A stretch of DNA of 64,000 bases from Escherichia coli (GTDB lineage: Bacteria > Pseudomonadota > Gammaproteobacteria > Enterobacterales > Enterobacteriaceae). The translations under genes and the position numbers were made by a program. Positions 1-7,340 of the stretch are shown piece by piece (position 1 is the stretch's first letter; every line of letters begins with the position of its first letter). The stretch is from NCBI RefSeq assembly GCF_002854065.1, contig NZ_CP024147.1. One strand, written 5' to 3'. The notes beneath the pieces were generated by a model, which did not search any database, was not told where the DNA came from, and saw only the letters and a list, made by a program, of their open reading frames with translations.

Positions 1-2810
1 GTGAGTTTGCTTACGACGAAAACCACTGCATGACGCTGCACCGCCAGCCGGGCGGCGAAGGGTATTATTACCAGTGGGGCTGGTATGACGGTCCGGATGA
101 TGCGGCGTGGCGGGTAACGGGGCACCACACGGACAGCGGTGAACAGTACCGGCTGGCGTGGGACCTGGCGCAGCGCAGGCTGTGCGTGACGGACGGACTG
201 GGGCGCACGCGTTATCACCAGTGGGATGCGCAGAATCAGGTGACGGCGTACCAGGACGAAGCCGGACAGGTGACGACATTCCGCTGGAGCGACGAAGAAC
301 GACTGTTGCTGGGGATGACCGACCCTCAGGGCGGCAAATGGCGCTATGTGTATGACCGGCAGGGGCATATCACGGAGACGCACGACCCGCTGGGGCGGGT
401 GGCGCAGGCGCAGTGGCACCCGGTGTGGCACCAGCCGGAAACGGAGGTGGACGCGGCGGGAAACAGCTGGCGCTGTGTGTACGATGAACGCGGCAACCTT
501 CTTGCCGTGACCGACCCGCTGCAGCAGAACACCCGGTATCAGTATGACCACCACGGCCAGGTGGTGCAGATAACGGATGTCCGTGGGGGGAATAAATACC
601 TTCAGTGGAACGAAGACGGGCAGCTCATGCGGCATACGGACTGTTCCGGCTCGCAGACGGCCTGGTTCTACGACGAACGCACGCGGCTGATACGGATGAC
701 AGACGCGCAGAGCCACAGCACGCGCTACGGGTATGACGACAGCGGTCATCTGACGGAGGTGATACTGGCGGACGGCCGCACGGTGAATTACCAGTCAGAC
801 GCGGCGGGCAGGCTGGTGAAGTACACCAGCCCGATGGGGAGGATAACGCGCTGGCAGCGGGACGGGCAGGGCCGGGTGCGCAGCCGGACGGACGCGATGG
901 GGCGCAGGACGGCGTTCGGGTACGACGCTTACGGGCGTCTGGTCACGCTCACGAACGAGAACGGAGAACGCTACCGGTTCCGCCATGATGTGCTGGACCG
1001 TCTGGCGGAGCAGATAAACCCGGACGGCTGCCGCCAGTCGTACCGCTACAACGCGCTGAACGCGGTCACGGAAGTGGTGTTCACCGGGGACCGGGGCGGT
1101 GAAATCCGCCACCGGCTGGCGCGTGATGCGGCGGGCCGGCTCACGGCAAAGGAGACAGCCGATGGCCGTACGGAATACGTCCATGATGCGGCTGACCGGC
1201 TACTGGAAATCCGCCGCCGGCGGTCGGATGCCGGGGAAACGGACGCCCCGGAGATTATCCGCTTCAGCTACGACAGACTGGGGCGGATGCTGAGCGAGGA
1301 GACGGCGCAGGGCATCCTGACCCACCAGTACGATGAACTGGGCAACCGGACTGCCACCACCTTTCCGGACGGCAGAACGCAGCGCCATCTGTACTACGGC
1401 AGCGGCCATCTCCAGCAGATAAATCTGGACCGGGAAGTCATCAGCGAGTTCACGCGCGACCACCTGCACCGTGAAGTGCTCAGAAGCCAGGGGCGACTGA
1501 GCACGCGGCAGCTTTACGACCCCGGCGGGCGGCTGAAGCGCAGGGAGACATACAGCGGGATGCGCGGGGTGGTACCGGAGACGTTCACGGACCGGCAGTA
1601 CAGCTACAGTGGCGAGGATGAACTGCTGAAGACGCGGCACAGCCGGCGGGGGGAAACGGATTACTTCTACGACCCCACGGGGCGCATCACGGCGTGTCGT
1701 TCGGAGGATGAGGGGTATCTGGCGAGCTGGCAGTACGACGCGGCGGGAAACCTGCTGGGGAGGCGCGCGGGGGAAAGGGCCACGGCAGAAAACAGCGTGG
1801 TGCCGTTCAACCGGCTGATGTCTTACCGTGGTGTGCACTACCGTTATGACGAATTTGGCCGTGCGGTGGAAAAGGAGGGCCGGAGCGGAACGCAGAGTTA
1901 CCGTTATGATGCGGAACACCGGATGGTGGAAGTGACGACAGCGCGGGGGACATACCGGTATGTGTACGATGCGCTGGGGAGGCGGACGGAAAAACAGCAC
2001 ATCAGCCCTGACGGAAAACCGTACAACCGGACAAAATTTTTATGGGACGGGATGCGGCTGGCGCAGGAGAGCAGGCCGGAGGGGACAGGCAGCCTGTATA
2101 TCTACAGGGACCAGGGGAGTTATGAACCGCTGGCGCGGGTGGATAAGGCGGGGAAAGAGGGACCGAACCGGATACTGTATTTTCACACGGATGTGAACGG
2201 CGCGCCGGAAGAGATGACGGACAGTGACGGGAAAATCGTGTGGGAGACGGGGTATCAGGTCTGGGGTAACACGATACAGGAGAAGGACCACGGCAGGGTG
2301 GAGCAGAACCTGCGCTACCAGGGACAGTACCTCGACAGGGAAACGGGGCTGCACTACAATCTGCACAGGTACTATGATCCGGATGTCGGGCGGTTCATGG
2401 TAACGGATCCGATAGGGCTGCTTGGTGGATTAAACTTATACCAATATGCACCGAATCCGTTGGGGTGGATCGACCCGTTAGGTTTAAAGTGTGGGCAACC
2501 TGAATGGACAAATCATGGATACAAACATTTTCCTCCAAAAAACAAATCATGGAAGGATATAATTAAATCAACAAAATCAGGCCCGGCAAAATATTCTCCC
2601 GATATTGATATTAAAACGCTGGAATACGATGTTTTTAATACAGGCACACCTGTTACCAACGGTAAACCATGGAAAGTAAAAGATATGGGGAAAGTTATTG
2701 GGGCCAGTGAGGGTAAAGAATCTCAATGGGTTCGAGTTGAACTTAGCGGTGGGACAATACATGGACATCCCATATCACTTGATGAATTCCGAAGGCTAAC
2801 AACACCATGA
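1..2810 (+). CDS. Rhs-family protein, 5'-partial (YD-repeat core plus variable C-terminal toxin tip); ORF is open to the window edge
   Basis: Long ORF with repeated YD/RYxYD motifs; conserved core-end motif DPxGL (…NPLGWIDPLGLK) followed by a 107-aa lysine-rich tip; no in-frame stop upstream of the first ATG at 30. Confidence 0.9.
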   Translation, partial: EFAYDENHCMTLHRQPGGEGYYYQWGWYDGPDDAAWRVTGHHTDSGEQYRLAWDLAQRRLCVTDGLGRTRYHQWDAQNQVTAYQDEAGQVTTFRWSDEERLLLGMTDPQGGKWRYVYDRQGHITETHDPLGRVAQAQWHPVWHQPETEVDAAGNSWRCVYDERGNLLAVTDPLQQNTRYQYDHHGQVVQITDVRGGNKYLQWNEDGQLMRHTDCSGSQTAWFYDERTRLIRMTDAQSHSTRYGYDDSGHLTEVILADGRTVNYQSDAAGRLVKYTSPMGRITRWQRDGQGRVRSRTDAMGRRTAFGYDAYGRLVTLTNENGERYRFRHDVLDRLAEQINPDGCRQSYRYNALNAVTEVVFTGDRGGEIRHRLARDAAGRLTAKETADGRTEYVHDAADRLLEIRRRRSDAGETDAPEIIRFSYDRLGRMLSEETAQGILTHQYDELGNRTATTFPDGRTQRHLYYGSGHLQQINLDREVISEFTRDHLHREVLRSQGRLSTRQLYDPGGRLKRRETYSGMRGVVPETFTDRQYSYSGEDELLKTRHSRRGETDYFYDPTGRITACRSEDEGYLASWQYDAAGNLLGRRAGERATAENSVVPFNRLMSYRGVHYRYDEFGRAVEKEGRSGTQSYRYDAEHRMVEVTTARGTYRYVYDALGRRTEKQHISPDGKPYNRTKFLWDGMRLAQESRPEGTGSLYIYRDQGSYEPLARVDKAGKEGPNRILYFHTDVNGAPEEMTDSDGKIVWETGYQVWGNTIQEKDHGRVEQNLRYQGQYLDRETGLHYNLHRYYDPDVGRFMVTDPIGLLGGLNLYQYAPNPLGWIDPLGLKCGQPEWTNHGYKHFPPKNKSWKDIIKSTKSGPAKYSPDIDIKTLEYDVFNTGTPVTNGKPWKVKDMGKVIGASEGKESQWVRVELSGGTIHGHPISLDEFRRLTTP

Positions 2811-3100
2811 ACATTGATTTCTTAGGAAAAAAAGGGAATGTAATTTTTAATGACTTCTCCCTGAAACAAAGCATCCCTCTTAATGAACAGCGAGATGAAC
2901 TTAAGGAAGATATGCTCCAGGTTGAATATCCTGGTGGGTATCTTTTGGATGTTGGGTGGCGACCATCTTTTAATTTAAATGGGAATTTTTATATTTGTTT
3001 AATAAAGGATTTTGATTGGGATACTCCCATTTATAATGGTTCTGCGAAAGATATTGTCTCATTATTATTTGAAATTAACCAAGCTATAAATAAACTTTAA
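2807..3100 (+). CDS. Putative Rhs immunity protein (97 aa)
   Basis: Start ATG overlaps the Rhs stop (ccATGAac); AT-rich; position immediately after the Rhs tip is typical of cognate immunity genes. Confidence 0.6.
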   Translation: MNIDFLGKKGNVIFNDFSLKQSIPLNEQRDELKEDMLQVEYPGGYLLDVGWRPSFNLNGNFYICLIKDFDWDTPIYNGSAKDIVSLLFEINQAINKL

Positions 3101-3140
3101 AAAAGCCGGGAAGAAAATAACATCTTCCCGGCTTTTTTAT
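3101..3140. terminator. Bidirectional rho-independent terminator between convergent genes
   Basis: Perfect hairpin agccgggaag…cttcccggct flanked by A-run and T-run. Confidence 0.7.
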
Positions 3141-3143
3141 TAT

Positions 3144-3473
3144 TTAACTCTCGTCCAGCACACTAAACATCCCGTTCCGCATCCCCTTAACCACCTGTTT
3201 AACCTGATAAAGTTCCTCCCGCAGCTCCTGCACCTCGTCACTGTCAGCGATAATGGTCAGGCACCCCTCCGAAATCTTCACCGTGACACCCCGCCCGGTA
3301 TCAAATCCGGCCTCTTTCAGCCAGTCGCCCTTAAGGTTCAGGCAGGGGTGTCGTGAGTAGTACGTGGTCATGTAGGTTTTGCTGTTTATGTGGCGGGCTC
3401 TGACATAGCCGACTTTATAGCGGCGCTGTGTTTTGGAAATGGTGACTTCTGGCGTAATATCGTGTTCAGCCAT
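3144..3473 (-). CDS. SymE-like type I toxin (AbrB-fold endoribonuclease family)
   Basis: 109-aa ORF; segment LKGDWLKEAGFDTGRGVTVKISEGCLTIIAD aligns with the SymE core ([31 protein letters not shown]) as I remember it. Confidence 0.7.
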   Translation of the reverse strand: MAEHDITPEVTISKTQRRYKVGYVRARHINSKTYMTTYYSRHPCLNLKGDWLKEAGFDTGRGVTVKISEGCLTIIADSDEVQELREELYQVKQVVKGMRNGMFSVLDES

Positions 3474-3601
3474 GATTAACTACCTTGATGAGTTGCTTGC
3501 GGGGAGCGCGCTTTCGTAATCTTGCCCTGCTAGCGGATTAACTTCACAAAAATCATTTCCCAACGTCTACACTTACTCCTGTTAATATCTCAGGAGCAGT
3601 A

Positions 3602-4111
3602 ATGAATCAGCAACGATTTGATGACAGCACCCTAATCCGTATCTTCGCCCTTCATGAGTTACATCGACTGAAAGAACATGGCTTAACGCGCGGGGCGCTT
3701 CTCGATTATCACAGCCGCTATAAACTCGTCTTTCTGGCTCATTCCCAGCCGGAATACCGCAAACTTGGCCCGTTCGTGGCTGATATTCACCAGTGGCAAA
3801 ATCTGGATGACTATTACAACCAGTACCGCCAACGCGTAGTTGTTTTGCTTTCTCACCCCGCCAACCGACGTGACCACACCAACGTTTTGATGCACGTTCA
3901 GGGTTATTTTCGCCCGCATATTGATTCCACAGAACGCCAGCAGCTGGCTGCGCTTATCGACAGTTATCGCCGTGGCGAGCAACCACTTCTTGCGCCGCTG
4001 ATGCGTATCAAACACTATATGGCGCTTTATCCTGACGCCTGGCTTTCAGGGCAGCGTTATTTCGAACTTTGGCCGCGTGTGATTAACTTGCGCCATTCAG
4101 GAGTTTTATGA
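3602..4111 (+). CDS. ybgA: DUF1722-family protein YbgA
   Basis: 169-aa ORF immediately upstream of and overlapping phr (ATGA overlap), as in the K-12 ybgA-phr operon. Confidence 0.85.
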   Translation: MNQQRFDDSTLIRIFALHELHRLKEHGLTRGALLDYHSRYKLVFLAHSQPEYRKLGPFVADIHQWQNLDDYYNQYRQRVVVLLSHPANRRDHTNVLMHVQGYFRPHIDSTERQQLAALIDSYRRGEQPLLAPLMRIKHYMALYPDAWLSGQRYFELWPRVINLRHSGVL

Positions 4112-5526
4112 CTACCCATCTGGTCTGGTTTCGCCAGGATTTACGTCTGCATGATAATCTCGCGCTGGCTGCCGCCTGCCGCAATTCGTCTGCACGCGTG
4201 CTGGCGTTGTATATCGCTACACCACGCCAGTGGGCGGCGCATAATATGTCGCCGCGTCAGGCTGAACTTATCAATGCTCAACTGAACGGGCTACAAATCG
4301 CGCTGGCGGAAAAAGGCATTCCTTTATTGTTCCGTGAAGTGGATGACTTTGCCGCCAGCGTCGAAATAGTTAAACAGGTGTGCGCGGAAAACCGCGTTAC
4401 TCATCTTTTTTATAACTATCAGTATGAGGTGAATGAGCGGGCGCGGGATGTGGAAGTTGAAAGAGTGCTGCGTAACGTGGTGTGTGAAGGATTTGATGAC
4501 AGTGTGATCCTGCCGCCTGGCGCGGTGATGACTGGCAATCATGAGATGTACAAAGTCTTTACGCCTTTTAAGAATGCCTGGCTGAAACGGCTGCGGGAAG
4601 GGATGCCGGAGTGCGTCGCTGCACCAAAAGTTCGTAGTAGCGGATCGATAAAGCCCGCGCCATCCATTACGCTGAATTATCCTCGTCAGTCTTTCGATAC
4701 TGCGCATTTCCCGGTGGAAGAAAAAGCGGCGATTGCGCAATTACGCCAGTTTTGCCAGAACGGTGCCGGAGAATATGAGCAACAACGAGATTTTCCGGCA
4801 GTGGAAGGCACCAGTCGTTTGTCCGCCAGCCTGGCAACGGGCGGGTTATCGCCTCGCCAGTGTTTGCATCGCCTGTTGGCGGAACAGCCGCAGGCGGTGG
4901 ACGGTGGGGCCGGTAGTGTCTGGCTTAATGAGCTGATCTGGCGCGAGTTTTACCGTCACCTGATAACGTATCACCCCTCGTTGTGTAAACATTGTCCGTT
5001 TATTGCCTGGACGGATCGTGTGCAGTGGCAGAGCAATCCCGCACATTTACAGGCCTGGCAGGAAGGCAAAACGGGATACCCGATTGTCGATGCTGCCATG
5101 CGTCAGCTTAATAGCACTGGCTGGATGCATAACCGGCTGCGGATGATTACAGCCAGTTTTCTGGTGAAAGATTTATTGATCGACTGGCGCGAAGGCGAGC
5201 GGTATTTCATGTCGCAGCTGATTGATGGTGATTTGGCAGCCAATAACGGTGGCTGGCAGTGGGCGGCTTCTACGGGTACTGATGCAGCGCCGTATTTTCG
5301 TATTTTCAACCCGACAACCCAGGGCGAGAAATTTGACCGCGAAGGCGAGTTTATCCGCCAGTGGCTACCGGAACTGCGCGATGTACCGGGGAAATCGGTG
5401 CATGAGCCGTGGAAGTGGGCTGAGAAAGCAGGTGTGAAGCTGGATTATCCGCAACCGATAGTCGAGCACAAAGAGGCGAGAGTACAAACGTTGGCAGCGT
5501 ATGAGGCGGCGCGGAAGGGGAAATAA
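4108..5526 (+). CDS. phr: Deoxyribodipyrimidine photolyase
   Basis: 472-aa ORF; N-terminus MTTHLVWFRQDLRLHDN and FAD-binding C-terminal region characteristic of photolyase. Confidence 0.95.
   Translation: MTTHLVWFRQDLRLHDNLALAAACRNSSARVLALYIATPRQWAAHNMSPRQAELINAQLNGLQIALAEKGIPLLFREVDDFAASVEIVKQVCAENRVTHLFYNYQYEVNERARDVEVERVLRNVVCEGFDDSVILPPGAVMTGNHEMYKVFTPFKNAWLKRLREGMPECVAAPKVRSSGSIKPAPSITLNYPRQSFDTAHFPVEEKAAIAQLRQFCQNGAGEYEQQRDFPAVEGTSRLSASLATGGLSPRQCLHRLLAEQPQAVDGGAGSVWLNELIWREFYRHLITYHPSLCKHCPFIAWTDRVQWQSNPAHLQAWQEGKTGYPIVDAAMRQLNSTGWMHNRLRMITASFLVKDLLIDWREGERYFMSQLIDGDLAANNGGWQWAASTGTDAAPYFRIFNPTTQGEKFDREGEFIRQWLPELRDVPGKSVHEPWKWAEKAGVKLDYPQPIVEHKEARVQTLAAYEAARKGK

Positions 5527-7340
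<1,814 letters not shown>

Follow-up and report, generated by a model that had tools for sequence, protein, structure and literature searches.

At its left end, the window, a stretch of 64,000 nucleotides from contig NZ_CP024147.1 of the Escherichia coli assembly GCF_002854065.1, contains the 3′ end of an rhs gene, followed by a small open reading frame (ORF) coding for 97 amino acids (aa) and, in convergent orientation, by a symE-like gene (Table 1). The Rhs reading frame enters the window from the left and is closed by the TGA at 2808-2810. The Rhs core terminates in ...YAPNPLGWIDPLGL, with the DPLGL motif at 2472-2486 lying within ...NPLGWIDPLGL, that is, within the PxxxxDPxGL demarcation between an Rhs core and a tip of different composition. 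The tip comprises 107 codons (2487-2807, K1 being encoded at 2487-2489) and reads KCGQPEWTNHGYKHF...HGHPISLDEFRRLTTP. Fourteen of its residues (13%) are lysines. The G + C content falls from 62.8% in the core (1-2486) to 39.6% in the tip and to 31.6% in the 97-aa ORF. The latter begins with an ATG at 2807-2809 that forms an ATGA (2807-2810) together with the stop codon of the tip, and it terminates with a TAA at 3098-3100; the overlap suggests a translational coupling of the toxin tip and the 97-aa ORF. The original prediction, made from the sequence of the window, had described a lysine-rich and AT-rich tip of this length behind DPLGL and a following ORF that starts on the tip's stop codon, and both are found as described.

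Table 1. Features at the 3′ end of the rhs gene and in its immediate flank (window coordinates).
Feature	Position	Strand	Remark
Rhs core, C-terminal 828 codons of the 1544-aa PAAR-Rhs effector	1..2486	+	ORF open at window start; includes Rhs-associated core/autoprotease region
Toxin domain (Rhs-CT), 107 aa + stop; predicted ribonuclease (RNase), RNase A-like/BECR fold	2487..2810	+	
Candidate catalytic codons	K13-H14 2523-2528; K35-Y36 2589-2594; R83 2733-2735; E85 2739-2741; H92 2760-2762; H94 2766-2768	+	
Putative cognate immunity gene, 97 aa, acidic	2807..3100	+	start overlaps toxin stop (ATGA)
Exchangeable toxin-immunity cassette	2484..3101	+	homology lost compared to a strain with another tip at the same locus
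Hairpin, 17-bp stem, A-runs and T-runs at the flanks	3098..3139	both	from terminator scan

The full rhs gene was taken from the chromosome record of E. coli CUWW06 (NZ_CP182139.1), a wastewater isolate from Thailand, which is 100% identical to positions 1-5000 of the window. Between ybfA and ybgA-phrB this strain has, in this order, a gene for a 150-aa protein annotated as 'DcrB-related', the rhs gene, the 97-aa ORF and the convergent symE-like gene. The rhs product comprises 1544 aa and is annotated as 'RHS repeat-associated core domain-containing'. Searching the full-length protein with NCBIfam models yields 11 stretches of YD_repeat (229 bits) and a match to Rhs_assc_core at residues 1360-1437 (97 bits, cutoff 32.5), while RHS_core attains 324 bits and thus stays below its equivalog cutoff of 2000 bits. 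From Pfam, PAAR_motif matches residues 291-321 (E = 2.1e-5, with a weak second piece at 97-118) and DUF6531 matches residues 395-473. A prePAAR-type motif, AARQGDALLH, is located at residues 7-16, the Pfam model prePAAR_I being not significant on this protein (E = 0.91). The combination of a PAAR motif, YD repeats, an Rhs-associated core and a prePAAR-type motif therefore identifies the protein as a PAAR-Rhs effector, a type of protein that type VI secretion systems (T6SS) deliver. By its RefSeq label 'DcrB-related', the gene directly upstream looks like one for an Eag/DUF1795-type chaperone; NCBIfam gives no meaningful match for its product. To the left of the window, a stretch of 785 bp between ybfA and this chaperone-like gene (5920-6705 of the CUWW06 locus, L003) carries no annotated gene, and in strain SCU-111, which has the same tip at another locus, vgrG is found at the corresponding position.

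With respect to the exchange of tips at this locus, a blastn comparison with strain OkiPb01678, which carries a different tip there, aligns positions 1-2483 of the window at 97.2% and positions 3102-5000 at 95.6% identity, the part in between remaining unaligned. Homology is thus lost at 2483/2484 and regained at 3102, so that the tip and the 97-aa ORF constitute a discrete unit (2484-3101) that has been swapped, which bears out the comparison between strains envisaged in the original prediction. The classification of the tip as a variable C-terminal toxin likewise holds, as the domain is located C-terminally in the representative proteins (see below) and allele homology breaks exactly at DPLGL. 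For the same reasons, and because the ORF ends at 2810, the possibility that the tip is a core-proximal segment of a longer Rhs protein with the true tip elsewhere is ruled out. Taken as a toxin/immunity cassette of a PAAR-Rhs effector, the locus is almost certainly read correctly.

The 97-aa ORF has no match in Pfam, NCBIfam, PHROGs or PADLOC. The label 'SMI1/KNR4', which some of its relatives bear in UniRef, is not supported by Pfam, in which no match to the SMI1_KNR4 or SUKH profiles is obtained. There are 51 homologues, with E-values down to 7.5e-59, most of them 97 aa long and found in Enterobacterales and Pseudomonas; the positions G10, E34, D35, Q38, D48, W51, F61, W71 and P74 are conserved in at least 95% of the sequences. 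Of the 93 toxin matches in all loci fetched, which come from many phyla, 92 are followed directly by a gene for an immunity homologue, the sole exception being located at a contig end, and this linkage holds on Rhs, PT-HINT, orphan and unidentified carriers alike. Among 64 distinct toxin-immunity pairs, 31 have a start codon that overlaps the stop codon, either by 4 nt or by 1 nt. The ORFs behind an orphan toxin of Avibacterium and a PT-HINT toxin of Paenibacillus also match the immunity protein (BLASTP, E = 3e-22 and 2e-24, respectively). Pairwise identities of toxins and immunity proteins are correlated (r = 0.78, a value reached in 0 of 2000 permutations), which in part reflects shared phylogeny and should therefore be taken as co-divergence and not as proof of co-evolution. 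The immunity protein diverges faster than the toxin (mean pairwise identity 37% vs 57%), and the two are oppositely charged, the toxin having a net charge of +5 (median +6) and the immunity protein one of -5 (median -8).

An AlphaFold2 model of the toxin and the immunity protein joined by a flexible linker, computed with 47 paired sequences, has a predicted template modelling score (pTM) of 0.80, with a predicted local distance difference test (pLDDT) above 90 in both halves and below 50 in the linker; the immunity protein is folded as beta-alpha-beta4-alpha. A pTM of this size with two confident halves would imply that the halves are docked in a defined way. As far as genomic linkage, co-divergence and opposite charge go, and in line with a co-expression report for the related toxin of Salmonella bongori (see below), the notion that the 97-aa ORF behaves as the cognate immunity gene is supported.

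The tip itself has no match in Pfam, NCBIfam, PHROGs or PADLOC, in Pfam even at E ≤ 10, in accordance with the original prediction that it cannot be assigned to a known toxin domain. Likewise, 35 diverse members of the toxin family give no match to a toxin family in Pfam, and none to Ntox50 at E ≤ 10. By sequence it has 94 homologous proteins, with E-values down to 2e-59. In the PDB, its sole real relative is 8QJC_A, a 'T6SS-associated Rhs core and toxin domain' (E = 2e-62), residues 1426-1529 of which align to residues 3-106 of the tip with 88% identity over 104 residues. Weak PDB matches to Tad2/ModTad2 (E = 0.09) and carboxynorspermidine decarboxylase (E = 0.69) were dismissed as noise, since they cover little sequence, lack significance and have no counterpart in the fold searches. 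In an alignment of 35 homologues H14, K35, Y36, R83, E85, H94 and P95 are the same in all sequences, with K13 and H92 being conserved in at least 90% of them; in a second, independent set from genome contigs H14, H92 and H94 are invariant and K13, K35, R83 and E85 reach at least 90%. Based on the former alignment, AlphaFold2 models the tip with a pLDDT of 94.6 and a pTM of 0.85 as two N-terminal helices, a five-strand antiparallel sheet and a C-terminal helix. Foldseek assigns probabilities of 1.00 and 0.97 to the first two structural neighbours of this model, all others being not significant.

The PDB relative is the PAAR-Rhs toxin of S. bongori (8QJC; Kielkopf et al. 2024, bioRxiv 10.1101/2024.02.26.582050). 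According to this report, the toxin cleaves itself from the core, shows no ordered density inside the Rhs shell and is predicted to be an RNase with H1437, K1458, H1515 and H1517 as proposed catalytic residues, and the construct comprising Rhs and toxin was made with co-expression of the immunity protein, which is reported as required. The proposed catalytic residues correspond to H14, K35, H92 and H94 of the E. coli tip. In S. bongori N268-08, the strain used for 8QJC, the ORF following the toxin codes for 97 aa and is 70% identical to the E. coli ORF; judging by strain name and accession order, it is likely to be the S5MXF1/A464_2173 of that paper. Both species also have in common the junction of DPLGL with KCG, the 4-nt overlap of start and stop codons and a symE-like gene just downstream. 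They differ in species and locus, the E. coli cassette residing at the rhsC-type locus between ybfA and ybgA, and, in addition, the toxins differ by 12-13 substitutions and the immunity proteins have diverged by about 30%. The suggestion that the tip might represent an uncharacterised specificity needs correcting in one respect: its family is not entirely uncharacterised, a toxin with 88% identity having already been described and predicted to be an RNase.

Amongst structurally similar toxins, MafB2-CT from Neisseria (PDB 8HHJ) is an RNase requiring H335, H402 and H409 for toxicity (PMC9970974), and YxiD-CTD from Bacillus subtilis 6633 (PDB 9V8I), which its authors assign to Pfam Ntox50, is a metal-dependent tRNase requiring H447, H521, H528, K446 and K524 (PMC12700104). 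The layout of the tip resembles that of MafB2 and YxiD, with K13-H14 near the N-terminus and two candidate catalytic histidines some 78-80 residues on. In contrast, identity between the tip and Ntox50 (PF15542) is only about 16%, the two C-terminal histidines are 2 residues apart (H92-G-H94) and not 7 as in the Ntox50 toxins, and the family of the tip has K35-Y36 and R83-x-E85 as additional conserved residues. Immunity proteins are unrelated as well, MafI2 and the Sm-like YxxD on the Ntox50 side differing from the beta-alpha-beta4-alpha protein of E. coli, and so are the carriers (MafB and the LXG/type VII secretion system vs Rhs/T6SS). A profile of the toxin family searched against the PDB finds 8QJC only, and neither 8HHJ nor 9V8I. 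CdiA-CT of Yersinia kristensenii (PDB 5E3E), a member of the bacterial RNase A superfamily, is a weaker structural match with 13% identity; it has Thr and Tyr, and not His, as acid-side residues, is delivered by contact-dependent inhibition (type V secretion) and is paired with an all-helical immunity protein. Given the similar layout on the one hand and the different histidine spacing and missing profile link on the other, we read the tip as structurally related, at a distance, to the Ntox50 and RNase A-like toxins, which it may resemble in action, and not as a proven member of that family.

Within E. coli, the PAAR-Rhs-CT modules Rhs-CT1 to CT10 (Ma et al. 2017), as summarised in PMC6730261, share with the present locus an N-terminal PAAR motif, an Rhs core, a variable C-terminus, a downstream immunity gene and an upstream eagR/DUF1795-type gene. 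The C-terminal domain of the present protein matches none of the Pfam toxin families on which that classification draws, and no text placing the tip in the scheme was found in the open-access literature.

The toxin family is large and widespread. A profile search of 1.84 billion cluster representatives at E ≤ 0.001 retrieved 600 proteins, 135 of them at E ≤ 1e-30. Among the best 150 of these about 600 proteins, the carriers range from about 100 to 3340 aa, and the domain generally ends within a few residues, and at most about 16, of the protein's C-terminus. Of eight sampled carriers with at least 322 aa, five are Rhs proteins; some copies from Gram-positive bacteria, e.g., in Paenibacillus, follow a PT-HINT domain, which is the only non-Rhs carrier identified. 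In two further carriers that are not Rhs proteins, P0250 (971 aa) and P0174 (518 aa), Pfam recognises no domain. A motif of the DPxG[LWIVMF] type occurs within 45 residues upstream of the toxin domain at 28 of 64 distinct loci. Scanning one genome per species yielded 80 loci, with Enterobacterales, Snodgrassella, Pseudomonas, Chitinophaga, Pedobacter, Clostridia, Paenibacillus, Veillonella, Myxococcales and Candidatus Dependentiae as hosts. Such carriers and such a spread are the usual behaviour of a polymorphic-toxin module.

Several of these hosts display arrangements of their own. Toxin-immunity pairs are found at four loci in metagenome-assembled genomes of Candidatus Dependentiae/Babeliales, which are amoeba-associated intracellular bacteria, the toxin domain being fused there to upstream regions of about 80 to more than 670 aa devoid of the Rhs junction motif. 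At eleven loci of Pseudomonas spp. a linker of 35-45 aa rich in Pro, Gly and Cys separates DPLGL from the toxin domain, and at five loci from several Pseudomonas species there are short orphan copies, all starting after a conserved '...AETTWMLVPATPEEI'. In Avibacterium paragallinarum (L005, 1-8369) small ORFs are arrayed behind an Rhs gene, the last of them being an orphan toxin with its immunity gene; as the array adjoins genes for a TraI relaxase and a DncV-like nucleotidyltransferase of the type found in cyclic-oligonucleotide-based anti-phage signalling systems (CBASS), it probably resides on a mobile element.

In E. coli itself, the cassette is rare: of 5426 complete genomes, 15 carry it. 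There are at least three settings. In CUWW06 and a few other strains it forms the tip of the main rhs gene at the ybfA-ybgA locus, in PapRG-06-5 it is an orphan fragment behind another full-length rhs gene, and in SCU-111 and its relatives it belongs to a vgrG-linked rhs gene at another locus. The cassette is mobile, changing its rhs locus as well as its position, which may be full-length or orphan. Between the alleles of CUWW06 and SCU-111, the toxin has two synonymous and no nonsynonymous changes, and the immunity gene has four of each. In PapRG-06-5 (L001, 10819-12701) the orphan cassette follows about 1.3 kb of rhs core, equivalent to the window from position 1217 onward, and adjoins a full-length rhs gene with a different tip and immunity gene; in RefSeq the core fragment is annotated as a pseudogene and the toxin tip is not annotated. 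In SCU-111 (L002, 12745-24663), two tandem units lie directly downstream of the rhs-immunity-symE module, each containing a symE-like gene and genes for a helix-turn-helix protein, a CHC2 zinc-finger/primase protein and XerC. Between the units lies what is left of an rhs 3′ end, with two small ORFs, maybe a second orphan cassette. The units resemble integrative elements that have piled up at the rhs locus.

On this basis, the locus as a whole is quite probably best explained as a cassette of a T6SS-delivered PAAR-Rhs effector with an RNase tip and an occluding immunity protein. The shell of YD repeats would enclose the 107-aa C-terminal domain, and the Rhs aspartyl autoprotease would cut after DPLGL, leaving the tip as a free polypeptide inside the shell. 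Mounted on the VgrG spike via its PAAR domain, with the gene for an Eag-type chaperone directly upstream, the effector would be fired into neighbouring bacteria, in the cytoplasm of which the basic tip may act as an RNase, the reaction being a transphosphorylation either assisted by metal or independent of it. Base and acid would be provided by H14 and the H92-G-H94 pair, with K13, K35, R83 and E85 presumably assisting in RNA binding and in stabilisation of the transition state; the substrate might be tRNA, as it is for the nearest structural neighbour YxiD. The acidic 97-aa protein, being co-translated, would bind the toxin 1:1 and block its RNA-binding face, thus protecting the producer and its kin, an occlusion suggested by analogy with MafI2 and YxxD and by charge complementarity. 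RNase chemistry, substrate, mode of occlusion and T6SS delivery in CUWW06 are the steps of this scheme that we infer. Judging by its modelled fold and residue conservation, RNase action of the toxin through H14 and H92/H94 is probable.

A number of points weigh against this explanation. Enzymatic activity has been demonstrated for no member of the toxin family, and the toxin is invisible in the 8QJC crystal. Sequence profiles tie the tip neither to Ntox50 nor to any RNase family, identity to the structural neighbours is about 16%, and the C-terminal histidine pair is spaced by 2 residues in contrast to 7 in MafB2 and YxiD. The defined docking of both proteins is read from a single value, the pTM of 0.80. 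Finally, the CUWW06 annotation has no vgrG in the interval from ybfA to the chaperone-like gene upstream of rhs. In one alternative, the toxin/immunity pair is genuine but the toxin is not an RNase and uses a RelE/ParE/RNase A-like scaffold for another activity, such as ParE-like gyrase poisoning, DNase activity or another phosphotransfer reaction; this is considered improbable. The missing vgrG bears on another alternative, which accepts the cassette as genuine but not as a T6SS weapon in this strain, where it might be a silent or reserve module, a provider of immunity or an intracellular module resembling toxin-antitoxin (TA) systems. The orphan position of the cassette in PapRG-06-5 would fit this, as would the ability of Salmonella Rhs elements to act as type II TA-like modules reported in PMC7043789. 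On the other hand, the tip in CUWW06 is in frame with an intact Rhs protein of 1544 aa that has a PAAR motif and the 'DcrB-related' gene directly upstream, and the absence of nonsynonymous changes between alleles indicates that the toxin is under purifying selection. Moreover, VgrG partners of T6SS effectors are often encoded elsewhere, and such a non-weapon role is accordingly considered rather unlikely.

That the 97-aa ORF is not an immunity gene at all, but a chance ORF in AT-rich DNA or a chaperone or adaptor accessory to the tip, might be argued from its lack of family annotation and of a protection assay for the E. coli protein; in view of its linkage to the toxin in 92 of 93 cases, this is highly improbable. 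A further reading, which goes beyond the preferred explanation of a T6SS effector cassette with an RNase tip, is that the toxin and its 97-aa partner represent a distinct, unnamed and widely mobile family of RNase toxins and immunity proteins. The family would comprise roughly 600 representative clusters, from Enterobacterales to Clostridia, Bacteroidota, Myxococcales and Dependentiae; we regard this proposal as tentative. As the constellation K-H ... K-Y ... R-x-E ... H-G-H is unlike that of Ntox50 and RNase A, the family may have its own RNA target, e.g., a specific tRNA or rRNA site, as well as a new mode of immunity.

With respect to the 3′ flank, the hairpin listed in Table 1 begins at the immunity stop codon, where the cassette ends on its 3′ side, and resembles an intrinsic terminator acting in both directions, on the rhs-immunity operon as well as on the convergent symE-like gene. 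The latter, an ORF of 109 aa on the minus strand (3144-3473) in tail-to-tail orientation to the immunity gene, scores 50.7 bits with the NCBIfam SymE model, which is below the cutoff. Within its coding sequence, the opposite strand (3274-3402, plus strand) matches the Rfam family isrA (RF01385) with 112.9 bits at a gathering score of 51, which suggests a type I toxin/antisense-RNA pair. The same symE-like gene is found after the immunity gene behind different rhs tips in both E. coli and S. bongori; apparently it is carried along with the 3′ flank, which is conserved among rhs cassettes.

In contact-dependent competition between bacteria, Rhs tips serve as ammunition, and any further toxin/immunity specificity determines which bacteria are able to kill which others. 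Part of what is described here is already known, as the E. coli cassette is orthologous to the deposited and described S. bongori toxin and its architecture is that of a textbook Rhs protein; what goes beyond this is a family without a name in the domain libraries and the unusual constancy of its immunity partner across phyla. Were the activity and the RNA target shown, annotation resources would gain an RNase toxin family that has a name and a constant immunity partner, and the toxin left unresolved in the 8QJC crystal structure would be given a function; the understanding of Rhs systems as such would not change.

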